From positions 8,853 to 40,852 of the forward strand of contig NZ_JAYKGW010000086.1 in NCBI RefSeq assembly GCF_035285525.1: a stretch of DNA of 32,000 nucleotides, in the 5' to 3' direction. The notes beneath the pieces are model-generated. The model saw nothing but the letters and a program-made list of their open reading frames with translations. It was not told the origin of the DNA and made no database searches. The translations under genes were made by a program, and so were the position numbers. This document shows, piece by piece, positions 4,672 through 18,167 of this stretch (position 1 is the stretch's first letter; every line of letters begins with the position of its first letter). This DNA comes from Okeania sp. GTDB lineage: Bacteria; Cyanobacteriota; Cyanobacteriia; Cyanobacteriales; Microcoleaceae.

Positions 4672-5250
4672 TTAAAACAAACGTGCCACTGGACAGCTAA
4701 AACCAGGCAAGATCGGAGAAGCAAGAGTATCATTAGGAAGCAAAGTAGCAATTAATTCTAACATCGCCCGATCGCCTCGTCTATACACTTCAATTTGTTG
4801 ATTTCGCCAATCCACAATCCAATATTCCCGAACTCCTCGTTCTAAATATAGCTTTAATTTCAGTTCCCGGTCTCGTCTTTCATTAGTTTGACCTGCTGAC
4901 AATACTTCTACTACTAACTCCGGTGCCGCCGTCAGATGTCCGCTATCGTCAATAATTTTTGAGAGGCGATCGCTACTAACCCAAACCAAATCTGGCTCTA
5001 CATTATTGCCATCGCTAAAAACGATACCCGGAGCAAAAAAAGGCTCGCCCAGATTAGTAGAATCAGACCATTTCTCCAAATATCCATAAATTTTACCACA
5101 GGTGCGTTGATGGTATATATGGGGCGATCTAGTTATCAATAATTCTCCGTCAATAATTTCATAGCGGTTGCCGTTATTTGGCAAGAGTTCTAAATCTGCT
5201 GTTGTCCAGTAAATGCTGTCTTGGTAGTTTTGCGTAAGTTTTGTCTTCAT
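4672..5250 (-). CDS. Uma2-family (DUF820) putative endonuclease
   Basis: YEIIDGELLITRSPHIYHQ...VEPDLVWVS...APELVVEVLSAG...KLKLYLERGVREYWIVDWRNQQIEVY is the classic Uma2 pattern. It starts 11 nt after the mazF stop. Confidence 0.8.
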   Translation of the reverse strand: MKTKLTQNYQDSIYWTTADLELLPNNGNRYEIIDGELLITRSPHIYHQRTCGKIYGYLEKWSDSTNLGEPFFAPGIVFSDGNNVEPDLVWVSSDRLSKIIDDSGHLTAAPELVVEVLSAGQTNERRDRELKLKLYLERGVREYWIVDWRNQQIEVYRRGDRAMLELIATLLPNDTLASPILPGFSCPVARLF

Positions 5251-5261
5251 TAGTTTTCAGC

Positions 5262-5615
5262 TTAGACATCATAATCAATACAGGTAATTAACACTGCTAA
5301 CAGTTCCTGAAGAACAGTCTCAGAAACCTGCCCCAAACACCTAACAAATCTTTCACTAGAAATACTCCGAACTTGGAGAACATTACCAGCAGAGTCGCTA
5401 TCCAAACCATTATTCTGAGAACGGGGAATAGAAACCATAAAAGGGCGGTTTTGAAATTTAGGTTGCCATTTAGCTATAGGAATAACAATTCTGATAGGAA
5501 TGGAACTAAAAAGGTCAGAACTAATGACAACAGTCGGGCGAGTTTTTTTGATTTCTTGTCCTCTAGTTGGATCGAGTTCCACCAGCCATATTTCTCCTCG
5601 TTTAGGATTCTTCAT
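5262..5615 (-). CDS. mazF: MazF/PemK-family type II toxin (endoribonuclease)
   Basis: N-terminal RGEIWLVELDPTRGQEIKKTRPTVVISSD motif, 117 aa. It overlaps the upstream ORF by 14 nt. Confidence 0.75.
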   Translation of the reverse strand: MKNPKRGEIWLVELDPTRGQEIKKTRPTVVISSDLFSSIPIRIVIPIAKWQPKFQNRPFMVSIPRSQNNGLDSDSAGNVLQVRSISSERFVRCLGQVSETVLQELLAVLITCIDYDV

Positions 5616-5988
5616 CTTCTAAATCCCAATCTTCCCCATCAAGAACCGAAAACTCTGTTAACTCTGGATCGTTTAAAAAATCTTCAGCAGTTCCAGCTAT
5701 ATAAGGAGCCAAAATCTTGTGGCGTTCTGCAACTGGAAGCCGAGAAATTTCCGTCATAGATAGACGACTTGGCGACTCCATAGCTACAGCTTGACTATCA
5801 ATAGCACCAATTAAATCTCCTGTCAACTCGGACAAAAGTGGTTCTGGCGTTGGTGTAGTATTTGGCAGAACTCTCTCTTTAGACAATTGAGCAGCAATCC
5901 AATTTTCAGGAGTTATACCTTGTTGTCTGGCAACCTCTAAGAGAACTTTGTAAGTTTGTTCAGGCAGAATAATAGTATGATTTGACAT
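5602..5988 (-). CDS. putative cognate antitoxin of MazF (family not recognised)
   Basis: 128-aa ORF directly upstream of mazF, overlapping it by 14 nt (5602-5615). Acidic tail DGEDWDLEDEES. Assigned by position only. Confidence 0.5.
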   Translation of the reverse strand: MSNHTIILPEQTYKVLLEVARQQGITPENWIAAQLSKERVLPNTTPTPEPLLSELTGDLIGAIDSQAVAMESPSRLSMTEISRLPVAERHKILAPYIAGTAEDFLNDPELTEFSVLDGEDWDLEDEES

Positions 5989-6342
5989 AAGTTTATAAGT
6001 AATTTCTTAGCATTTTAACGCAAAACTCAATATTAATTTTCCTTTGGTGGGAAGAAGTGCTGATGGAGCCTAGAGACAGCTATATCGGCTTTCCAACAAC
6101 AACCTTCTCCACTATAAACTCAATCAAGTCCGAGTTGTCGTTGCACCTCCTGAAATTTTTTGCTCAAGGGAACAAACAAAGAAAATTGGCATTGGTGATT
6201 TTGGCTATGGTTTTTCCAAGCAGAGAAACCGGGTTTGTCTTAGATCGCTTATCATACTAACATCTATCTCCAATAAACTAGGTTTCTTATAAGATTTCAT
6301 AGTTCTATTCACCAACGCCAGAAAATTCAGTAGCAGATACTG

Positions 6343-7305
6343 TTAACTACGATCAATTTCTGCCAAAATTTCATCTAAAATTTCTTGGGCACCTTGCTCT
6401 CTCAATTTTTTCGCTAGTTCAATACCTATGTTTTCTGCATCAACAGCAGCACCAATAACAACATCTTTAACTAATTTTTTACCATCCAAACTGGCAACTA
6501 AACCAGTCAAAGTTAGTTGTTCTCCTTCTAGTTGGGTATCAACACCAATGGGAACTTGACAACCTCCTTCTAGCTCTCTCAAAAAAGCACGTTCTGCATA
6601 ACATCTCTGAGCAGTGGGAGTATGTTCCAAACTTTTCAATAAGTCGAAAATCTCACTATCTCCCTGACGACATTCTATTCCTAAAGCACCTTGTCCGACT
6701 GCATGGAGAGATACTTCCGGAGGTATAACTTGATGAATGCGATCGCTCATTTCTAATCTATACAAACCAGCATAAGCTAAAATTAGGGCATCATATTCAC
6801 CAGCATCCAATTTTGCTAGTCTGGTATTGAGATTACCACGAACATCTTTAAATTCCAAGTGGGGATAATGGTAGCGGAGTTGTGCTAAACGTCGCAGAGA
6901 GGAAGTACCGATAACAGCACCTTCTGGCAAAGTCTCCAGTTGTTTATCTTTGAATTTTTCATGGACAACTAGAGCATCTGCTGGGTTTTCCCGTTCGGTA
7001 ACGCAACCTAACATTAGACCTTCTGGCAAATTTGTTGGTAAGTCTTTGAGGGAATGAACTGCTAAGTCGGTTTTATTTTGCAGCATTCCTAATTCTAGTT
7101 CTTTGGTGAAGAGTCCTTTATCTCCAATTTTAGATAAGGCTACATCTAGAATTTTATCTCCTTGAGTAGACATGGTCTCGACTTCAAAGGTAATGTCTGG
7201 GAAATTTTTCTGGAGTTCTCCTTGCACCCAATGGGTTTGAACTAGGGCGAGTTGACTTTTGCGGGAACCGATCCGAACGGTGCGGGTAGAAGCAGATACT
7301 GTCAT
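6343..7305 (-). CDS. hemC: hydroxymethylbilane synthase (porphobilinogen deaminase)
   Basis: [37 protein letters not shown] and [17 protein letters not shown] motifs across the full 320-aa length. Confidence 0.92.
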
Positions 7306-9652: not shown

Positions 9653-10015
9653 AATCTTCTCTCTTTTAGAGACAGGTAATTATTAATTATCCATTATCGA
9701 TGTAATACAGCTTTCTAGGCTGTAAAAACCTGGAAGGTTGTGTGACAATAAATAGTAAATTTTCTCTCTTTTAGGTAATTATTAATTATAATTATCCATG
9801 TAACACAGCCTTCTAGGCTGTAACAACCTGAAATGTTGTGTGACAATAAATAGTCAATTTTCTCCCTTTTAGAGACAGGTAATTATTAATTATCAATTAT
9901 CCATGTAACAAAGCCTTCTAGGCTGTAACAACCTGGAATTTTGTGTGACAATAAATAGTCAATCTTCTCTCTTTTAGAAAAAGGTAATTATCAATTATCC
10001 ATTATCCATTATCCA
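9653..10015. repeat. tandem array, about 3.5 units of 98-105 bp
   Basis: Units start near 9653, 9758, 9856 and 9961 (TTCTCTCTTTTAGAGACAGGTAATTATTAATTATCC...GTGTGACAATAAATAGT). Each full unit carries the hairpin ACAGCC-TTCTA-GGCTGT (for example 9805-9821). The array ends in (CCATTAT)x3, which abuts the DUF4058 stop codon. Confidence 0.85.
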
Positions 10016-10810
10016 TTATCTTATTCCTTCTTGTCGCAACCAAGTATCTGCCCAAACTGCATCCTTTTCTGATAATCCTGGTACTGGTTGTTGAGTATAA
10101 TCTATTTTTAAATCATAACGGCCAACATCATAAATAGTAGTTAGTAAACTTTGTAAATCTATAATTGGTTCTGTATCTTCTGGGCGTAATGGCAAAGGAA
10201 ATTTAGGAATTTTATTTTGGATATTAAAGGCATATAAATCAGCTCTTGGTCGTTGCTTTTTCCGACTAACTAATATCCGATAATTACTTTCATTTTTATG
10301 ATTTGAAATAGGCATCATTTCACCACGACGTAGTAAATCTATTTCGACAAAATTAGTCAAACTATATAATATTTTTTCTCTTTTTTCTAAATACATTTCT
10401 CTACCTTTTCCACCTCTTTTATTAGCAGGAGATAATATTTCTATAGCAGTGATAACTTCTTTAGTTGCTACTTCCTGAATTTCTAAATATCCTTCACGAA
10501 TAGTAATTGGTATTGGCAGAGTTACTGTTGTAGGTTTTGTAGAAGGTTCTATTACTGCAACTTGAGATTCTGTAGAATTTGATGTGTTAATTTGACCTTT
10601 TTTTGATAACACTGAAACATCAGGAATACCTACAAGTAAAGATTCTATATTGTTAGTTTCATACATTCTGACATCTAGAGAAACTGAATATTTATCGCCG
10701 AGTTCACCAGATAATAAGTCAGCCATTCTGACAATGAGTCGATTATGTAATCCTGGCCATAAATCGGGATGTTCTAAATATGGGTCCATACCTGGAAATG
10801 GGGAGGGCAT
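10016..10810 (-). CDS. DUF4058-family protein
   Basis: The N-terminus MPSPFPGMDPYLEHPDLWPGLHNRLI is the signature start of cyanobacterial DUF4058 proteins. 264 aa. Confidence 0.8.
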   Translation of the reverse strand: MPSPFPGMDPYLEHPDLWPGLHNRLIVRMADLLSGELGDKYSVSLDVRMYETNNIESLLVGIPDVSVLSKKGQINTSNSTESQVAVIEPSTKPTTVTLPIPITIREGYLEIQEVATKEVITAIEILSPANKRGGKGREMYLEKREKILYSLTNFVEIDLLRRGEMMPISNHKNESNYRILVSRKKQRPRADLYAFNIQNKIPKFPLPLRPEDTEPIIDLQSLLTTIYDVGRYDLKIDYTQQPVPGLSEKDAVWADTWLRQEGIR

Positions 10811-10944
10811 AATTTTTTATCCTTTGGTTTTAATTAATTATAGTAAATATGATAATTATTTTGGTTTTGATTGTATTTTAACAAAATTTTATGGGTAGAG
10901 ATAATACCTATAGCAATTTTTTAATTTGTGAGGTCTTGATATTC

Positions 10945-11016
10945 GATCCCCCCTAACCCCCCTTAACAAGGGGGGAACTTCAAAGTCCCCCTTTTAAAGG
11001 GGGATTTAGGGGGATC
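10945..11016. repeat. 72-bp nested palindromic element built of G5/C5 runs
   Basis: GATCCCCCCTAACCCCCCTTAACAAGGGGGGAACTTCAAAGTCCCCCTTTTAAAGGGGGATTTAGGGGGATC. Outer arms are GATCCCCCTA / TAGGGGGATC, with two internal C-run/G-run hairpins. Confidence 0.7.
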
Positions 11017-11073
11017 GTATTTGTGTACCTAATCAATTTGATAATTGCTATACCCTCAAATTTTTCCATTAAT

Positions 11074-11307
11074 TTAGACTGACTGAATTTCTTGCCAAAA
11101 ATGCCATCCCCATACTGGTTTATATCCGAGTTTAAATGCAATTGTTAAACAGTCTCCTAATGTGAAATATTTAGAGCGTTTATCTTGTAAAAGATTGTAA
11201 TAAATCCACCCTTGACGGTAGCCATTATATTTTTGAGTTTTTATTAGTTCGTCAACTATAATTTGATGTTCTTCATTAACATAAAAGTTGACAGAAAAAT
11301 TGTTCAT
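11074..11307 (-). CDS. hypothetical small protein, divergent from the STAND gene
   Basis: 77-aa ORF with an internally repeated aromatic motif (NGYRQGWIYYNL and LGYKPVWGWHFW). No family assigned. Confidence 0.4.
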   Translation of the reverse strand: MNNFSVNFYVNEEHQIIVDELIKTQKYNGYRQGWIYYNLLQDKRSKYFTLGDCLTIAFKLGYKPVWGWHFWQEIQSV

Positions 11308-11484
11308 TTTTTCATTTGTTTTGATTGTCTACAATTTATATCTTAAGTTAAATAAATAGGTTTTTTGGGTCAAATAAAGCTGCATTTTTCCACTGCATCA
11401 AAAAGTGAGCAAAAACTGAGCCAAGTGAACTTTGGAGAAATGTTATAAAATAAAAGGTGTGTAAATTAAGTAGAAAAAATAACT

Positions 11485-12906
11485 ATGGCAGCTACTATTG
11501 CAGCATCAGAACAAGGTCTGAAAATTATTGATATGGCTAGAAAAAAGAAAGGATGGAATAAGTACGAAAGTGCTTGGCATGACTTAGCATTCACTTCTAA
11601 AGCAACACTAAAACGATTTTGGCAAGGAAAAGCAATTGCACAAGATACCTTTATAAATATTTGTAAAACTGTTGGAGAAAACTGGGAAAAAATAGTTGAT
11701 AATAACCCACTATCTCGAAGTAAGAAAAAAGATTTTTTTGCTTATGATTATGCTTGGGTGGGACGAGAAAATTTAGTTACTGAATTAACTAATAAAATTA
11801 AAGATACTTGTCGAGTTGCTATTATTGTTGGCATTTCTGGTATTGGTAAAACGGCATTAGCTGAAAAGGTAGTATCAGAGTTAGATTGGAATAAGTTTCA
11901 CCAGGAAAATTTTGAGTTAGATAACCAAGCTTCAGATTTTGCTAGTGTGGCAAGTCGATGGTTGGAAAAGTGGGGCGATCGCCTCCAGGAAGAAGACCGC
12001 AAAGATACCGGCAGATTATTAAATCGGTTGGTGAAGCGGTTACAGGATAATGAATATTTGATATTGATGGATTCTGTGGAAAATATTATGGAGGGAAATG
12101 AGCTGGAAGGTGGGAATAATTTCCGGGATGAATGGTGGGGGAAATTTTTTGAGAGTTTCTTAGGAACAGAATCTTGTAAAAGTCGAATCATTTTAACTTC
12201 CCAAGATTTTCCCCATCAAATACCAGAGCGTTATAAAAATTTCTGGCACTGCATACTGTTGACTGGGTTATCTGAGTCGGAGCGTTTGGAGTTATTCGAG
12301 AAAACTGGGTTAGAGGTAGATGCAGATTCACCAAGTTACGAATATTTAAAACGTATTGGTGCTGCTTATGAAGGTCATCCTCTGGCATTGCGTGTAATTT
12401 CTGGGGAAATAGGTGCTAAACCTTTTGATGGTAATGTTGTAGCTTACTGGAAAAAGTACGGCCATGAAATAGAGGAGGTAGAAAAGGCGATCGCTGAAGT
12501 AGATCGGGGAATAATAGAGGGTGCTGATGATGAGTGGAAGTTGGATCGATATACTCGCAAGCTCCGAAAAAATGTGCAAGAGCGTTTGGAAAAGACTTTT
12601 GGCAGACTGAAACAGGATACGATTGATAGTTATCGGTTATTATGCGAGGGTTCGATTTATCGTTGTGCAGTACCGGAAAAGTTTTGGTTGAATCATTTAG
12701 CTGATTGGGATTGTGATGAGGATGAAGCAGATTTAGCTTTGGAGGTTTTGCGCGATCGCTTTTTGCTTGAGGAAGTTGTGGAAAATGATGATGTGTTCGT
12801 GAGGCAACATAATTTAATTCGTAGTGTAGCATTGGAACATCATAAAAAATTGGACGAGGATGGGCAAGACAGGGATTTGGCCACGGATGCACGGATGGTG
12901 AATTAG
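11485..12906 (+). CDS. STAND NTPase: N-terminal HTH-like domain + NB-ARC NTPase + winged-helix-like end, with no repeat sensor domain
   Basis: HTH-like TSKATLKRFWQGKAIAQDTFINICKTVG. Walker A GISGIGKT (nt 11830-11853), Walker B YLILMD, RIILTSQD, GHPLAL (GxP motif), and an MHD-like QHNLIR about 27 aa before the stop. Confidence 0.8.
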   Translation: MAATIAASEQGLKIIDMARKKKGWNKYESAWHDLAFTSKATLKRFWQGKAIAQDTFINICKTVGENWEKIVDNNPLSRSKKKDFFAYDYAWVGRENLVTELTNKIKDTCRVAIIVGISGIGKTALAEKVVSELDWNKFHQENFELDNQASDFASVASRWLEKWGDRLQEEDRKDTGRLLNRLVKRLQDNEYLILMDSVENIMEGNELEGGNNFRDEWWGKFFESFLGTESCKSRIILTSQDFPHQIPERYKNFWHCILLTGLSESERLELFEKTGLEVDADSPSYEYLKRIGAAYEGHPLALRVISGEIGAKPFDGNVVAYWKKYGHEIEEVEKAIAEVDRGIIEGADDEWKLDRYTRKLRKNVQERLEKTFGRLKQDTIDSYRLLCEGSIYRCAVPEKFWLNHLADWDCDEDEADLALEVLRDRFLLEEVVENDDVFVRQHNLIRSVALEHHKKLDEDGQDRDLATDARMVN

Positions 12907-13089
12907 AGTATATTGAGATTAGCGATCGCTATTTACAGCAGTTTTTATTTGTAGGGGCGAATGGCATTTCCGTGCCGGAATGCTCCGCAAACGCCCTAAA
13001 GAGTTTTGGCTATTTTCACAGAATTAGGAGTACCAAGAAATTAAAAGAGCGCCAAAAATTGAAAAAACAATTAATGAATCAATAAAATA

Positions 13090-14646
13090 ATGACAAATAT
13101 TACACCAAATGGCGAATTAGTATTAAGAGAAATTAGTCTCGAATCAGCAATTATTAAATCAATTAAACCACATTCAAAAAGGTCTCAATATCGGGGAGTT
13201 GTTAACTGGTTAGTATTCTATAAAGCACATAAAAATGCTTCTAACTTGGAGAAGGTTAAAGGTTATTTAGAAGCTTTTTATCATTTGTGTCAAGTGGAAG
13301 ATTGGGATAGGGCAACTAAATTAATTTTTGTTAGACTTAATACTCCGACAAAAGAAGAATTTCACAAGCAACTTTATACTTGGGGATATTATCAAATACA
13401 AATTGAAATTTACACTCAAGTTTTGAGTTTTAGCGAACTAAGTCTGTCAATAAAGGCGACTATATTAACAAATTTAGGAAAAGCAAATATGGCTTTATTA
13501 AAGTTTGACAAAGCCATAGAATATCTAAAACAAAGTTTGAGTATTGCTCAAGAAATTCAATCTCCTGAAGAAGAGGAAAAAGCAATACAAAATCTCGGTC
13601 ATGCTTATCTATCTAAAGGAAACTTTGTTGCAGGAAAAGACTTGGTGGGAAATTTTAATGCTAAATTGCAATTTCGTCGAGCATGGAGATACTTTCAGCA
13701 AAGTTTAAAAATTAGTCGAGAAATTAACGACGTTTACAAAGAAGGAAGAGCTTTAGGAGGAATAGCAAATTTCTATACAGTTATTAGAAAGTATGACCAA
13801 GCTATTGATTATTATCAAAAGCAAATAGCTATAGGTAAACAAATTCAAAATTTAAGTCTTGAAGCAACGGCTAAGTGTAATTTAGGAATTGTTTATTGTG
13901 AATTGAGAGATTACGACAAAGCAATTGAATTTTCTCAGTCAAGTTTAGCTATAGCTAGAGAACTTCAAGATAGTCAGTTAGAAACTGGAAATATAGAAAA
14001 TTTAGGATTTATTGAGCGTCGTTTAGGAAATCATGATCAAGCAATTGAATTATCTCAAAAGCTTTTAGTAACGGCAAAAGAAACAAATAATATTTCAAGA
14101 AAAAATCTAGCATTAGAAAACTTAGCAAATATACATTATTCACAGGCATATGATGAGAAAACAACAGGGAATTATGACAAAGCTATAGAACATTATCAAC
14201 AAAGTTTATCTCTTGTAAATAAAATTCAATCTTCCCAGGAAGAAAGAGTATTATTTTTGAAATATTCGATACTTTTTAATTTAGGGGAAATCTATATAGC
14301 CAAAAAAGATTATGATAAAGCCATAGATTATTTTAAAAATACTTTCTTTGCTGCTGAAAAAAACAAAAGCATTGAAGGTCTCATTTTATCAGTAATGAGT
14401 TTAGCTAAAGTATATGCAGAACAAAACAATGGCAGACTATCAAACAGTTCTTATCTAGGGTTAGCTCAGATTATAATTTTCGTTGTTTTTGTGCAATTAA
14501 TAGATTTAATATTAGCAAGATTTTTATATTTAGCAGCTTTGATTTTAGATATTTTCAGTCCAGCTATATCCATAGTTCTTATAGTTTTCAAGTCCTTGAG
14601 AAATATTATTGGAATCAAACAACATACAAAAGTCAATGAAAATTAG
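13090..14646 (+). CDS. TPR-repeat protein with hydrophobic C-terminal anchor (paralogue 1)
   Basis: About seven ~40-aa TPR units by eye, for example ALGGIANFYTVIRKYDQAIDYYQKQIAIGKQI and AKCNLGIVYCELRDYDKAIEFSQSSLAIAREL. C-terminal hydrophobic stretch IIIFVVFVQLIDLILARFLYLAALILDIFSPAISIVLIVF. Confidence 0.8.
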   Translation: MTNITPNGELVLREISLESAIIKSIKPHSKRSQYRGVVNWLVFYKAHKNASNLEKVKGYLEAFYHLCQVEDWDRATKLIFVRLNTPTKEEFHKQLYTWGYYQIQIEIYTQVLSFSELSLSIKATILTNLGKANMALLKFDKAIEYLKQSLSIAQEIQSPEEEEKAIQNLGHAYLSKGNFVAGKDLVGNFNAKLQFRRAWRYFQQSLKISREINDVYKEGRALGGIANFYTVIRKYDQAIDYYQKQIAIGKQIQNLSLEATAKCNLGIVYCELRDYDKAIEFSQSSLAIARELQDSQLETGNIENLGFIERRLGNHDQAIELSQKLLVTAKETNNISRKNLALENLANIHYSQAYDEKTTGNYDKAIEHYQQSLSLVNKIQSSQEERVLFLKYSILFNLGEIYIAKKDYDKAIDYFKNTFFAAEKNKSIEGLILSVMSLAKVYAEQNNGRLSNSSYLGLAQIIIFVVFVQLIDLILARFLYLAALILDIFSPAISIVLIVFKSLRNIIGIKQHTKVNEN

Positions 14647-14656
14647 GAATCTAGAA

Positions 14657-16030
14657 ATGAATAATATTACACCAAGGGTTGAATTAGTTTTAGAAAAAAT
14701 AGGTCTAGAATCAACAACTATTAAATCAATCAAACCACGTCGAAAAAAGTCTCACTATCGGGCAGTTATTAACTGGTTAACAGAGTATAAACCCCATGCA
14801 AATGCTTCTAATTTACAAATAGTTAAAGGTTATTTAGAAGCTTTTCATCATCTTTGTGAAGTAGAAGATTGGGAAAGAGCTACAACAATTATTGATATTA
14901 CTCTCAATACCCCCACTAATGAAAAATTACGAGACCTATTAGGAACTTGGGGTTACTATCAACAACAAAAAGAAATTTATGACCGACTTTTAGGCAAATT
15001 AAATGATGAGTGGCAGCTCATTTGTTTAAATGGTCTTGGTAATTGTCACTTTTATACAGGTAGTTATCAACTAGCTATTAATTACTTTAATCAAAGTTTA
15101 GTAATTGCTCAAAAAAATCTCCTGACTGAAAAAGAAGTAGGCATACTAATAAATCTAAGTGTTCCTTATCAAGAAATAGGAAATTATGAAAAAGCTATAG
15201 ATATTTTATCTCAAGCTTTGAAAATTAATAAAGCAATAAATAACCCTCTTGGAGAAGGTTCAATATTCACAAATTTGGGTTCTATTTATGATGCTATTGG
15301 CGATTATGAAAAAGCAATTCAGTTTCATACAAAAGGTTTAGATATTGCTAGAGAAAATGTTAACCTCTATCAAGAATGTGTAGCACTTGGAGGTATGGGA
15401 AATGTTTATTTTGCTCTGCAAAACTATCATGTGGCAATGACTTATTACCAACAACAATTAAAAATAGCAAAAGAAATAGGCGATCGCCAAAGTATTAAAA
15501 CTGCTTTAGGCAATATTGGTATTATTTACCGCTTTCTCAACACATATCCTGAAGCTATTACTAATCTTCAAAAAAGTTTAGAATTAGCAATAGAAGTTGG
15601 CGATTTGAATGGAAAAGAAACTGCACTAATAAATCTAGGTTTAATTGAAGTTGAATTAGGAAATTTTACTCAAGGAAAAGAGTCTTTAGAAAAAGCTTTA
15701 AATATTGCCAAAATGATAGGCGATCGCCGAGGTGAAAGTTTTATATTATTCGGTTTAGCTCAGTATTATTATAGGTGTGGTAAATTTCAACAAGGTTTTA
15801 CTGTCTCTCAAAAATCTCTGAAGATAATGATAGAATGTGGAGTAACAGTAAATGCTTTATTATTGCCAAAATGGTATAAATCATTCTTAAAATTTAGTCA
15901 AAGAGGTAAATTTCAGCTAACTTTATTCCTCTTATTTGTATTAATAGGATTTCCCTTTGCCATCATTGTATCTTTCATAACTACATTATTTTGGGGTTTA
16001 TATAATAAGCAGAAACTCATCAACACTTAG
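14657..16030 (+). CDS. TPR-repeat protein with hydrophobic C-terminal anchor (paralogue 2)
   Basis: The N-terminal ~112 aa are about two-thirds identical to paralogue 1 by hand alignment. About seven TPR units, several ending in IGD. Tail LTLFLLFVLIGFPFAIIVSFITTLFWGL. The preferred start is ATG 14657 (MNNITP, AGGA 8 nt upstream), which matches the MTNITP start of paralogue 1. The ORF-track start 14609 would overlap paralogue 1. Confidence 0.8.
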   Translation: MNNITPRVELVLEKIGLESTTIKSIKPRRKKSHYRAVINWLTEYKPHANASNLQIVKGYLEAFHHLCEVEDWERATTIIDITLNTPTNEKLRDLLGTWGYYQQQKEIYDRLLGKLNDEWQLICLNGLGNCHFYTGSYQLAINYFNQSLVIAQKNLLTEKEVGILINLSVPYQEIGNYEKAIDILSQALKINKAINNPLGEGSIFTNLGSIYDAIGDYEKAIQFHTKGLDIARENVNLYQECVALGGMGNVYFALQNYHVAMTYYQQQLKIAKEIGDRQSIKTALGNIGIIYRFLNTYPEAITNLQKSLELAIEVGDLNGKETALINLGLIEVELGNFTQGKESLEKALNIAKMIGDRRGESFILFGLAQYYYRCGKFQQGFTVSQKSLKIMIECGVTVNALLLPKWYKSFLKFSQRGKFQLTLFLLFVLIGFPFAIIVSFITTLFWGLYNKQKLINT

Positions 16031-16050: not shown

Positions 16051-16346
16051 GGGTTTGGAGAGCAAACCCCTACAGTAAACTTTTCCCAATATTGATGGTA
16101 AAATCTTATTCTCCAAAAAAGATTCCTCTCCACAGAAAAGCGATCGCTGCTTATTTATGTACTTTTAGCTTCTATTTGACTTTGATTATCGACAAAATTT
16201 ACTAGCAATTGAAAAAGTATTTTTTTGATATTATTTCGACCATAAATTCATAATTGTAGTTTAAATTATAATAACCTAATAAGAGTAAAAATAGCAATCC
16301 TAAATAGATTGTAATATTGAACCGTAGGGGTTTGGTTTCCAAACCC
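16051..16346. repeat. inverted pair of 24-25-nt hairpin-containing repeats bracketing the intergenic region
   Basis: GGGTTTGGAGAGCAAACCCCTACAG (16051-16075) against CGTAGGGGTTTGGTTTCCAAACCC (16323-16346), which are reverse complements apart from 2-3 positions. Each arm is itself a 7-bp-stem hairpin. Confidence 0.5.
16291..16307 (+). repeat. conserved intergenic 17-mer ATAGCAATCCTAAATAG
   Basis: Identical 17-mer on the minus strand at 28455-28471. The 15-mer core also occurs at 22932-22946. A partial TATAGCAATCC occurs on the minus strand at 252-262. Confidence 0.7.
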
Positions 16347-16376
16347 AAGCGCCAAGAAAATTGTCTAATTCTTTCT

Positions 16377-18167
16377 ATGTTTAATCCTCCTCCAGAAATA
16401 TTTGAAAATCCCAGAGATTCTTATCATAATCCCTGGATTTTTGGTATCTTAATTATTGTTGTTATTTTCATATTTATAATTATGTATTCTGTAGAGTCTC
16501 AATCTAAGTTTTTAACCGATCCATTTCTCCAAGCTCCGACAAAAAATTCTGTGCAAGTTGTTTGGTTTACTGAATTTCCTGGCCAACGAAATTTGGTGTT
16601 TTATGGTGAAAATTTGACTCAAGTTGTTGAGGCAAATACTACTAAACTTAGTCGCACTCGTGAAGACCAAGATTCTTTTGTGGGAAAACAAATAGAAAAG
16701 GGTTTAATTTATCAACAACCTATGATGCGAGATATCTGGCGACATGAAGCTAAAGTTATTGATTTAATTCCTAATAATTCTGTGCCATATCAAGTTATTA
16801 GCGAACAGGAAAATGGGGAAAACATTAGCAGTAAAATTTTTAGTTTAGCTCCTAAACCAACTGCTGATCAACCTTTAAAAATTCTCCTAACTTCTGACCA
16901 TCAATTAAAACCAATGACTTCTGCAAATCTGCAAAAGGTAACAGAAACTTTTGATAAATTAGATGCTGTTTTTTTTGCTGGAGATTTAGTTAATATTCCG
17001 GATCGCTCTTCAGAATGGTTTGATGATAATCGAGGAAATGCTTTTTTTCCAAATCTCCAAGGTAGGGCTAATTATGAATTAGAAAAAAATGGGGAAAAAA
17101 CTATTTATCAAGGTGGGGAATTAATTCAAAATATGCCTTTATTTCCAGCGATTGGCAACCATGAAGTTATGGGTATATTCTCGATGGAAAGTTCTTTAAA
17201 TGATCAATTTAGTCAGCCATATCCTCTGGAAGTTGTGAAAAATTTATCTTCACAAAATACTGAAAATATTAATTCTGAGACTTGGTTAAAAAATAATTCT
17301 TTTAACACAGATACTTATCAAGAGATTTTTACTTTCCCTGAAAATAATTCAGAGAAAAAAAATTATTATGCTGTGACATTTGGTGATGTTCGTTTAGTGG
17401 TTTTATACATTACAAATATCTGGCGATCGCCCAGTTTAGAGGATGATGCTAGAGGCAAATATCGGGAACGAAAAAAAGATTTTGATAATCCGGCTGAATG
17501 GGGTTATGGTCAACATATTTTTGAACCTATTATTAAAGGTAGTGAACAATATAATTGGCTAGAAAAAGAATTAGCAAGTCAAGAATTTCAAGAAGCTAAA
17601 TATAAGGTAGTTATGTTTCACCATCCGCCTCATTCTTTAGGTGAAAATGCTATTCCTGCTTATACTAATCCCATTCAATATATTGACCGAGATAAAAATG
17701 GTAAAATTACCATGATTCGTTATGAATATCCTCAACAAAATGACTATATTATTCGGGATGTTTTACCATTATTAGAAAGTGCTGGCGTGCAGTTAGTATT
17801 TTACGGACATTCTCATCTTTGGAATCGTTTTGTTAGTCCGAGTGGAATGCACTTTTTAGAAACATCAAATGTGGGTAATAGTTATGGAGCTTATATAGGA
17901 GATAAAAAGCGAACTGTGCCTTTAAATTATCAGGAAAAATATGCTGAAGTTGGTAATCCTAATGGTTTAGAACCGATAATTCCAAGTATTGCACCTTTGC
18001 GAGATGAAAATGGTAAAGCTTTACCTTATATTGCTAGTAATGATATTACAGTTTTTAGTATTTTTGAGACTGAAACAGGAACAGTTAGTAGTTATTATTT
18101 TGATACGAGAAAGCCTAATTCTGAAGTTGTAAAATTTGATGAATTTCAGCTTCAGAAAAAGGACTAA
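16377..18167 (+). CDS. membrane-anchored purple-acid-phosphatase-like metallophosphoesterase
   Basis: N-terminal TM WIFGILIIVVIFIFIIMYSV. PAP-type N-terminal domain DPFLQAPTKNSVQVVWFTE. Metallophosphoesterase motifs in order: LTSDHQ, AGDLVN, GNHE, MFHHPP, GHSHLW. The ORF-track TTG start 16317 lies inside a repeat arm. ATG 16377 is preferred. Confidence 0.8.
   Translation: MFNPPPEIFENPRDSYHNPWIFGILIIVVIFIFIIMYSVESQSKFLTDPFLQAPTKNSVQVVWFTEFPGQRNLVFYGENLTQVVEANTTKLSRTREDQDSFVGKQIEKGLIYQQPMMRDIWRHEAKVIDLIPNNSVPYQVISEQENGENISSKIFSLAPKPTADQPLKILLTSDHQLKPMTSANLQKVTETFDKLDAVFFAGDLVNIPDRSSEWFDDNRGNAFFPNLQGRANYELEKNGEKTIYQGGELIQNMPLFPAIGNHEVMGIFSMESSLNDQFSQPYPLEVVKNLSSQNTENINSETWLKNNSFNTDTYQEIFTFPENNSEKKNYYAVTFGDVRLVVLYITNIWRSPSLEDDARGKYRERKKDFDNPAEWGYGQHIFEPIIKGSEQYNWLEKELASQEFQEAKYKVVMFHHPPHSLGENAIPAYTNPIQYIDRDKNGKITMIRYEYPQQNDYIIRDVLPLLESAGVQLVFYGHSHLWNRFVSPSGMHFLETSNVGNSYGAYIGDKKRTVPLNYQEKYAEVGNPNGLEPIIPSIAPLRDENGKALPYIASNDITVFSIFETETGTVSSYYFDTRKPNSEVVKFDEFQLQKKD

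Follow-up and report, generated by a model that had tools for sequence, protein, structure and literature searches.

How a signal reaches the output of a STAND NTPase is usually asked of one protein, since a STAND/NLR protein is described as one chain whose repeat sensor autoinhibits the nucleotide-binding oligomerization domain (NOD) in cis. Three adjacent genes of Okeania sp. raise the question of whether the sensor can instead be supplied by a separate protein. They lie in a 32,000-nucleotide (nt) stretch of NCBI RefSeq assembly GCF_035285525.1 (contig NZ_JAYKGW010000086.1, positions 8,853 to 40,852), which we call the window and within which all positions are counted. An earlier note made from the sequence alone had read the three open reading frames (ORFs) as a NOD with a helix-turn-helix (HTH) domain and no sensor, followed by two membrane-anchored tetratricopeptide repeat (TPR) proteins. 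All three ORFs are present where the note had placed them. With a protein match of 100% to an Okeania sp. record, the host is an oscillatorian filamentous cyanobacterium and not, as the note had implied, a member of the Nostocales. We propose that the locus encodes a two-part, or split, STAND/NLR-like receptor and that its family is a conflict- or immune-type sensor with exchangeable outputs, a reading to which we give a probability of about 0.5. Related loci are numbered L001 onward, and individual proteins carry a P number. The features of the locus are as follows.

11485..12906, + strand: ORF1, putative switch subunit, 473 amino acids (aa); Pfam NB-ARC, family alignment, model of a homologue
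11485..11709, + strand: HTH-like N-domain of ORF1, aa 1-75; sub-threshold HTH profiles, helices of the P0091 model
12860..12935, + strand: element A, intergenic repeat of ~75 nt; copies in L001, L045, L012, and L018
13006-13094, + strand: element B, remnant of a soluble TPR partner gene (3' end); blastn
13090..14646, + strand: ORF2, putative sensor subunit 1, 518 aa; TPR_12, PADLOC TPR model, KD19
14657..16030, + strand: ORF3, putative sensor subunit 2, 457 aa; TPR_12, AlphaFold2 model, Foldseek, KD19

ORF1 is a complete NOD without a sensor

ORF1 matched the Pfam NB-ARC profile over residues 96-331 (E value of 1.6e-11; 44.4 bits against a cut-off of 23.5), with weaker scores for AAA_22, nSTAND1, and NACHT. 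The five motifs that had been picked out by eye are all present and in canonical order (GISGIGKT, YLILMDS, SRIILTSQD, GHPLAL, and RQHNLIR, the last at aa 440-446), and in an alignment of 21 family sequences they coincide with invariant columns (G116/G119-T123, D196/S197/E199, S233/R234, G297-L302, and R440-L444). The motifs by which a STAND protein of the AP-ATPase/NB-ARC type is recognized, namely Walker A, Walker B, the sensor-1 Arg, GxP, and an MHD-like His, can all be assigned in ORF1; a repeat sensor on the NOD chain, the other hallmark of the class, cannot. The protein consists of the HTH-like domain (aa 1-~75), a linker, and a complete NOD (aa ~96-459) made up of a nucleotide-binding domain, helical domain 1, and a winged-helix domain (WHD). 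Its stop codon lies 27 aa past QHNLIR, just beyond the winged helix, and the repeat sensor is absent from the chain. The reported lack of a TPR, WD40, or LRR array is thus no peculiarity of this copy, as the homologues are likewise 457-490 aa long.

The three-domain NOD fold was seen in the AlphaFold2 model of P0091, a homologue 60% identical to ORF1 and not ORF1 itself (mean predicted local distance difference test [pLDDT] of 84.4). The best PDB match of this model was 6mfv, an archaeal STAND protein with TPRs from Pyrococcus (E value of 2.9e-15), and further matches were ADP-bound Apaf-1 (1z6t; TMt of 0.54), NRC1 (8bv0; TMt of 0.63), NRC2, MalT (8bob; TMt of 0.61), and CED-4. Sequence-profile searches of the PDB with the ORF1 family, or with the N-terminal module of the partner proteins described below, gave P-loop-level or insignificant matches only.

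ORF2 and ORF3 are stand-alone TPR proteins with a shared N-terminal module

The proposed layout of the two downstream proteins, a shared N-terminal module (N-module), about seven TPR units, and a hydrophobic C terminus, was borne out in every part. ORF2 has its N-module at aa 1-115 (nt 13090-13434), a TPR array of ~7 units at aa ~116-440, and a hydrophobic tail in two segments at aa ~452-503 (nt 14443-14598; KD19 up to 2.58). In ORF3 the N-module (aa 1-112; nt 14657-14992) is followed by 7 TPR units (nt ~15005-15838), then a linker bearing the conserved basic juxtamembrane motif LPLP(R/K)WYKSFLKFSQRG(K/R)F, and a hydrophobic helix, the tail being a single 31-residue stretch (aa 417-449; nt 15905-16003; KD19 of 2.87). 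TPR_12 was matched with E values of 2e-34 and 5.9e-45 for ORF2 and ORF3, respectively. Identity between the two proteins drops from 64% for the N-module (113 aligned residues) to 31% for the TPR array and to 23% for the tail.

The AlphaFold2 model of ORF3 (pLDDT of 90.6; predicted template modeling score of 0.85) has a helical N-module, a low-confidence linker, and a long terminal helix at residues 426-463 in a 464-aa numbering. Its TPR region is composed of 14 paired helices with pLDDT values above 94, i.e., 7 units, and so has the tandem helix-turn-helix repeats of a TPR superhelix. Foldseek matches of this array were LGN, the RNPP peptide sensors NprR/Rap, and MalT domain III (1hz4; TMt of 0.70, root mean square deviation of 3.8 Å). 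For the ORF2 orthologues of L001 and L003, identity amounts to 74-83% over the N-module and to 55-61% over the tail. One gene caller placed the ORF3 start at 14636; this start was rejected because the orthologues begin with MNNITP, which favors the ATG at 14657 and upholds the 10-nt spacer between ORF2 and ORF3 given earlier. Both proteins matched the PADLOC TPR model PDLC01169 (E value of 3e-54 for ORF2, over the N-module and first repeats, and 1e-68 for ORF3). The CRISPR-accessory origin that this model suggested was dropped, as the CRISPR-linked STAND is a different, single-chain protein linked to type I-E systems (bioRxiv 10.1101/270033).

In natural fusions the N-module comes directly after the winged helix

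Single-chain relatives of the system exist (P0091, 769 aa; P0198, 758 aa; P0237, 765 aa; and an ORF of 1292 aa in L043). In P0198 and P0237, the sequence '...LLRQHNLIRSVAY...' runs straight into '...W.TAYKP...NLE.VKGYLEAFHHL...', so that the winged-helix end RQHNLIRSVAY is followed directly by the N-module, and in P0091 the NOD and the N-module are joined by a linker of ~10 aa. On the strength of these junctions, the N-module sits right after the winged helix in single-chain forms, as had been supposed. The P0091 junction (residues 473-494) has pLDDT values below 50 in the model, which is how a linker between two units that fold independently would look.

A homologue search with the N-module alone returned short fragments whose architecture was uninformative, and an exhaustive profile search of 1.84 billion representative proteins (clustered at 50% identity) was used instead. 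It recovered 566 clusters at an E value of ≤0.001. Among the best 150 of these, ~91% carry the module at the extreme N terminus, whereas in 7, the fused forms, it lies internally (positions ~430-590 in proteins of 776-980 aa). In the fused forms the match begins at profile position ~22-29, so the first ~25 residues belong to the stand-alone form only. Judged from these profiles, the N-module is a distinct family, a family-specific module of ~115 aa. Its invariant residues include W40, E61, F63, H65, C67, and W72.

Within the partner proteins, a constant adaptor contrasts with a variable sensor. The N-module was more conserved than the TPR array in 38 of 39 paralogue pairs from 14 multi-partner loci (median identity of 48% versus 35%), a contrast weakened by the non-independence of the pairs and by alignment-register problems, which can depress TPR identity. 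In Trichodesmium erythraeum IMS101 (L031), two NB-ARC/TPR modules stand in tandem (4890-7058 and 9951-11637). The partner genes there consist of 18 and 14 tandem TPR-coding units of 120 nt with 83-90% DNA identity and are highly homogenized. Homogenized tandem repeat units are a known signature of fast-diversifying NLR sensors.

The split layout is conserved among filamentous cyanobacteria

ORF1 homologues of this stand-alone length form more than 100 clusters with 53-89% identity, from Okeania, Trichodesmium, Microcoleus, Coleofasciculus, Planktothrix, Anabaena, and others. Scanning one genome per GTDB species brought up 279 relatives; the hosts of the family are almost all filamentous or colonial cyanobacteria. 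We fetched 80 of these loci, 79 of which were testable for partner position. An N-module-TPR gene lies on the same strand within 300 nt downstream of the NOD gene in 70 of the 79, and in 51 of 76 loci the longest partner ORF has its start upstream of the NOD stop codon or level with it. The number of partners per NOD is one in 59 loci, two in 11, and three, four, and five in 2 loci each. The two alternative sensors previously noted are therefore real here, but they are a single case within a range of one to five.

The family is also found on nine cyanobacterial plasmids; none of its members was found on phage records. On a plasmid of Tolypothrix sp. PCC 7712 (L082 7455-10185), the NB-ARC gene and its partner overlap by 4 nt, and an IS701 transposase interrupts the partner gene. 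The NB-ARC protein is annotated there as an "ATP-binding protein," the N-module fragment as a "hypothetical protein," and the remainder as a "tetratricopeptide repeat protein."

These distributions bear on the alternative that the split is the recent decay of a single-chain HTH-NB-ARC-TPR gene or that ORF2 and ORF3 are unrelated TPR neighbors. ORF1 and ORF2 do share a reading frame, single-chain relatives do exist, and TPR genes are abundant in cyanobacteria. A recent lesion is nevertheless hard to reconcile with a stand-alone length kept in more than 100 clusters and with the same two-gene layout, mostly as overlapping genes, in 70 of 79 loci, and chance adjacency is hard to reconcile with the predominance of stand-alone proteins (~91%) among the top N-module matches. 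Because both the NOD length and the gene order are conserved, the split is ancient and selected and not decay, and we regard the alternative as effectively refuted. The earlier view of the sensor-less NOD and its stand-alone TPR partners as one genuine, selected, and cofunctional unit is upheld by the stand-alone clusters, the synteny, and the natural fusions. The argument first offered for selection, that the three ORFs are intact among dead genes, is superseded by this far stronger comparative evidence.

The gap between ORF1 and ORF2 is a recombination scar

The 183-nt gap between ORF1 and ORF2 (12907-13089) is where decay should have left its trace, and it does include coding-derived sequence. 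It carries seven in-frame stop codons, counting that of ORF1 itself, which speaks against decay. In the close relatives L002 and L003, ORF1 ends with '...KKLEDDDE*' (the asterisk marks a stop codon) and the partner ATG follows 1-2 nt on. In the window and in L001, the gap is a mosaic of three parts, with element A, a short dispersed repeat in the middle, and element B. Element A supplies the last 14 codons of ORF1 (GQDRDLATDARMVN*) as well as the start of the gap. It recurs directly downstream of the stop codons of TPR genes in L045, L012, and L018 and is present in five copies with a spacing of ~120 nt in L001 (4988-5664). In that locus, from Okeania sp. SIO3I5, copies of element A fill a 1.25-kb gap between the NB-ARC gene and the first TPR gene.

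Element B is 80-97% identical by blastn to the coding 3' ends of soluble partner genes in at least six loci (L014, L015, L031, L029, L027, and L024), and it reads '..LAIFTELGVPRN*KSAKN*' where the intact cap reads 'ALAIFTELGVPELKECQEL'. It also matches the spacer upstream of ORF3-type genes (L045 10330-10416 and L002 3870-3955). In the window it forms the 5' flank of ORF2 and includes a promoter-like site (13059-13088) whose hexamers are a consensus match only. The coding part of the gap thus corresponds to the 3' end of another TPR gene and not to an ORF1-ORF2 linker. Since element B aligns to the tail of another TPR cassette, the gap is a recombination scar among sensor cassettes rather than a broken ORF1-ORF2 fusion. 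The earlier note had named two observations that would mark a recent lesion, fused orthologues in relatives and a gap aligning to their coding sequence. In the orthologues the ORFs are separate, and the coding sequence to which the gap aligns is of a different kind, the 3' ends of other TPR partners and not an ORF1-ORF2 junction. The reading of the note thus withstands the test that it had set.

The segment 12001-13000, over the 3' half of ORF1 and the gap, has a GC content of 0.41 compared with ~0.32 and a GC skew of +0.37.

The N-terminal domain and an exchangeable output

The HTH-like N terminus of ~75 aa described earlier was only partly substantiated. The N-domain of the P0091 model is a confident four-helix bundle (pLDDT of 82-97), and the putative recognition helix carries the invariant residues K43, R44, and F45. 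Profile matches, however, stayed below the Pfam cut-off (HTH_26 in 6 of 18 members, with a best E value of 0.0037, and HTH_3 in 2 of 18), and a PDB sequence search with the N-terminal domain gave no HTH match. An HTH fold is likely, though not established, and it is probably of the Cro/C1 (XRE) type. A match to the FADD death domain (E value of 0.15; 17 residues) was taken as chance, because its position at the very end of a ~75-aa domain is incompatible with the six-helix death fold.

Other N termini occur on closely related NODs. Proteins whose NODs are 54-60% identical to that of ORF1 carry PNP_UDP_1 (2e-26), SEFIR/TIR_2 (1.6e-17), TIR_2 (4.7e-23), or PNP plus TIR, and in a neighbor-joining tree of the NOD region these forms group together in a single clade that lies within the HTH forms. 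Most members of the family have an HTH N-domain, which is apparently also the ancestral type. PNP, TIR, and SEFIR domains are typical suicide or immune effectors. Because the clade that carries them is nested among HTH forms of the same NOD, the N terminus behaves as an exchangeable output on a constant chassis of NOD plus trans-acting sensor. Through this clade, a STAND with HTH output is directly linked to classical immune effectors that share its chassis.

Partner C termini: soluble caps, membrane tails, and nucleosidases

Most partners end in a conserved soluble cap, '..ALxIAxELGIPLAxECQELxxKL'. Predicted transmembrane (TM) tails are confined, among the 80 loci surveyed, to the clade of the window (L001 and L003), a Microcoleus clade (L011, L021, and L046), L022, and the second gene of L045, with KD19 values of 2.6-3.3 overall. 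By hydropathy and, for ORF3, by the modeled terminal helix, the tails of ORF2 and ORF3 are predicted C-terminal anchors, with basic residues on their N-terminal side. The membrane tethering of the two sensors foreseen in the earlier note is therefore predicted for ORF2 and ORF3 but does not define the family. Since most surveyed partners are soluble and tails occur in few lineages, membrane anchoring is an elaboration of particular lineages rather than part of the core. Across L001, L003, and L045, the tail of the ORF3 type and the basic juxtamembrane motif before it keep 64-83% identity, and on this conservation the tail is probably functional in the lineage of the window.

A third kind of C terminus was seen in L039 (9208-11619), L062 (4194-6296), and P0216, whose partners end in a PNP-like nucleosidase ('..GGEMEG..'), recognized by eye and motif and not by a hidden Markov model scan. 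A sensor subunit can therefore, it appears, carry an effector-type domain of its own.

This variety invites the reading that the tails are themselves the effectors, i.e., that NOD oligomerization clusters the TM helices of the sensors and permeabilizes the membrane in abortive infection, the HTH domain being autoregulatory or sensing nucleic acid. The partner C terminus is indeed as variable as exchangeable effectors would be (mostly empty, TM in at least three separate lineages, and PNP-like in three proteins), and the tails are very hydrophobic. A single helix or hairpin is minimal for a pore, however, the conserved positive juxtamembrane segment of the ORF3 tail is typical of a plain tail anchor, and HTH-type NODs with soluble partners would be left without an effector. 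We consider a membrane-permeabilizing role unlikely.

Neighboring genes

The genes around the module in the window are mostly housekeeping genes (a MiaB-like enzyme, HemC, RdgB, MnmA, and Nnr), with Uma2 and DUF4058 genes scattered between them. The defense or conflict context previously suggested by nearby MazEF, Uma2, and DUF4058 genes is thus not supported, the neighborhood being mainly housekeeping and no defense island.

A DUF4058 gene adjoins the module (10016-10810, - strand), and DUF4058 is a positional neighbor in 11 loci of the Okeania/Dapis/Trichodesmium type (L003, L012, L014, L015, L017-L019, L024, L025, L027, and L045). Across these 11 loci, identity is 77-91% for DUF4058 and mostly ~61% for the NB-ARC protein; in L012, for example, it is 91% versus 61%. 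This difference indicates that the module diverges or is replaced much faster than its flank, and the DUF4058-flanked locus looks like a fixed site at which the module is replaced or evolves fast. DUF4058 was rejected as a component of the system, as it is a neighbor in loci of this type only and is reduced to a 24-aa relic in L023 and L029.

Directly downstream of ORF3 lies a gene for a 616-aa calcineurin-like metallophosphoesterase with an N-terminal hydrophobic segment (16317-18167, + strand). It is probably unrelated to the module, because it stands beside the module in none of the 80 related loci. A 77-aa ORF without a Pfam match, divergent from ORF1 (11074-11307, - strand), was likewise rejected as a component, being conserved (68-80%) in the three closest loci only (L001, L002, and L003). 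All-against-all clustering of 812 flanking ORFs revealed no recurrent neighbor gene beyond lineage-specific synteny.

Eight PNP-type NB-ARC loci, from Oscillatoria, Microcoleus, Hyella, and Moorena, share a predicted membrane protein of ~204 aa (L049 277-891, - strand; L039, L047, L055, L062, L066, L078, and L080). It is divergently transcribed just upstream in seven of the eight and may be an extra component of PNP-output systems.

Proposed mechanism and alternatives

From the architecture, conservation, gene coupling, fusions, adaptor/sensor contrast, and exchangeable outputs described above, we infer a mechanism and a biological function. ORF1 would be the switch-and-output subunit, combining an HTH-like domain with a complete NOD and lacking a sensor. 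ORF2 and ORF3 would be two alternative sensor subunits, each with a docking N-module, a ligand-binding superhelix of 7 TPRs, and a membrane-inserting tail. The N-module may dock on the C-terminal face of the NOD, so that the TPR array would keep the NOD ADP bound and off in trans. Binding of a protein or peptide ligand to the TPR sensor at the cytoplasmic face of the membrane would free the NOD, which would then exchange its nucleotide and oligomerize. The N-terminal HTH domains would thereby be brought together, with DNA binding as the output; in the sister clade, oligomerization would activate a PNP, TIR, or SEFIR domain instead. One NOD would serve one to five interchangeable sensor paralogues that differ in specificity and keep the docking module.

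The PNP/TIR/SEFIR clade, the shuffling of cassettes, and the rapid divergence lead us to favor a conflict or immune role for the family. The dynamics of the system are immune-like in four respects, namely fast divergence relative to the flank, the cassette scar, the homogenized repeats of T. erythraeum, and carriage on plasmids.

The same parts could serve as a physiological transcription switch, which was the main proposal of the earlier note. TM-tailed TPR proteins would hold the HTH-NOD protein at the membrane or relay a membrane or envelope signal to it, and the NOD would then oligomerize and activate ordinary promoters in the manner of MalT or AfsR but with three polypeptides. The HTH majority among the N-domains, the MalT NOD and MalT domain III among the structural matches, the housekeeping surroundings, the want of a PADLOC defense match for ORF1, and the conserved tail and juxtamembrane motif of the ORF3 type would all suit such a switch. 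Against it, most partners are soluble, and membrane sequestration would then not be the core mechanism; a nested clade of the same NOD carries PNP, TIR, or SEFIR; and no conserved target gene adjoins the modules. Variable partner number, cassette recombination, and divergence faster than that of the flank would also be unusual for a housekeeping regulator. We hold a purely physiological switch to be doubtful.

Several observations weigh against the split immune-type receptor. The window is not a defense island, and none of the PADLOC defense models matched ORF1, the best E values (0.0038 and 0.008) covering the P-loop only. The HTH majority is as compatible with an ordinary MalT/AfsR-like regulator as with an immune sensor, and the N-domain, being sub-threshold in Pfam, could be a non-DNA-binding adaptor. 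No repeat homogenization was found in ORF2 or ORF3. In this copy, moreover, the tight stop/start coupling of ORF1 and ORF2 has been lost to the 183-nt insertion-like scar, and the native acidic C terminus of ORF1 has been exchanged for 14 repeat-derived codons.

The split-receptor reading can be extended, tentatively, to a combinatorial innate-immune receptor. One NOD chassis would accept one to five plug-in sensors that are swapped by cassette recombination, each with a different invader ligand and some with their own effector (TM or PNP). The two membrane-resident sensors of the window would survey the cytoplasmic face and, on activation, cluster their tails and trigger HTH-dependent transcription. 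Such a receptor, if real, would be a prokaryotic precedent for placing the sensor and the signaling NOD on separate chains.

Comparison with known systems

None of the parts is new (NB-ARC NOD, TPR_12 sensor, HTH-like output); it is their arrangement that differs. It is distinguished by a break between the WHD and the post-WHD module, by one to five sensors beside each NOD, and by TM or PNP ends on some of them. STAND NTPases are typically coupled to repeats in the same polypeptide (PMC8195603), and surveys of NB-ARC-TPR and NLR-like proteins define them by a NOD and repeats on one chain (PMC8195603; bioRxiv 10.1101/2020.01.06.895854). The splits that have been described separate the effector, as effector-associated domains or separate effector genes, and not the repeat sensor (PMC7159879). 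A 2026 STAND survey mentions "split proteins" in its methods only (PMC13581612). In the literature searched, which included these four sources, we found no description of the present NOD/sensor split, and an earlier description is not excluded.

The significance of the family follows from this arrangement. It would offer a natural system for asking whether a NOD can be autoinhibited and activated in trans, how several sensors are handled by a single NOD, and how sensors are shuffled between loci. Architecture surveys that require a NOD and repeats on one protein undercount bacterial NLR-like systems; the GTDB scan by itself gave 279 relatives, and the N-module has 566 clusters.

The closest known relatives are the single-chain NB-ARC/AP-ATPase-TPR STAND proteins (6mfv and the cyanobacterial and actinobacterial NLR-like proteins), which have the same NOD motifs and fold and a TPR_12-type sensor. 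The Okeania family, in contrast, places the sensor and the post-WHD module on a separate chain, often in two to five copies and sometimes with a TM or PNP C terminus. Its rare members P0091, P0198, and P0237 are single chains like the classical NB-ARC-TPR STANDs. MalT and AfsR resemble the ORF1 system in combining a STAND NOD, an HTH output, and a helical-repeat sensor. The HTH domain of MalT is C-terminal and of the LuxR type and that of AfsR is N-terminal and of the SARP type, whereas that of ORF1 is N-terminal and Cro/C1-like, albeit sub-threshold. MalT and AfsR also carry their sensor in cis, with neither a membrane tail nor arrays of sensor paralogues, whereas ORF2 and ORF3 are separate chains with tails.

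Avs proteins and the NTP-dependent conflict systems (PMC7159879) share with the family the effector-NOD-sensor logic, a variable N-terminal output (TIR, SEFIR, PNP, or HTH), enrichment in filamentous cyanobacteria, and diversifying sensors. A constant NTPase core, a variable effector, and expansion in multicellular bacteria, the marks of a conflict system, are all found at the level of the family, but unlike Avs, ORF1 is matched by no PADLOC model. Among the conflict systems, those with FxSxx peptides encode a TIR-AP-ATPase and a vWA protein with TPRs separately (Kaur et al. 2020, PMC7159879), which is a split in a different context. The NAIP-NLRC4 system and plant sensor NLRs with their NRC helpers likewise have several interchangeable sensors for each oligomerizing module, a likeness that we take as an analogy only. 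In those sensor/helper pairs each sensor has a NOD of its own, whereas ORF2 and ORF3 have none and would plug into a single NOD, so the arrangements are not homologous.

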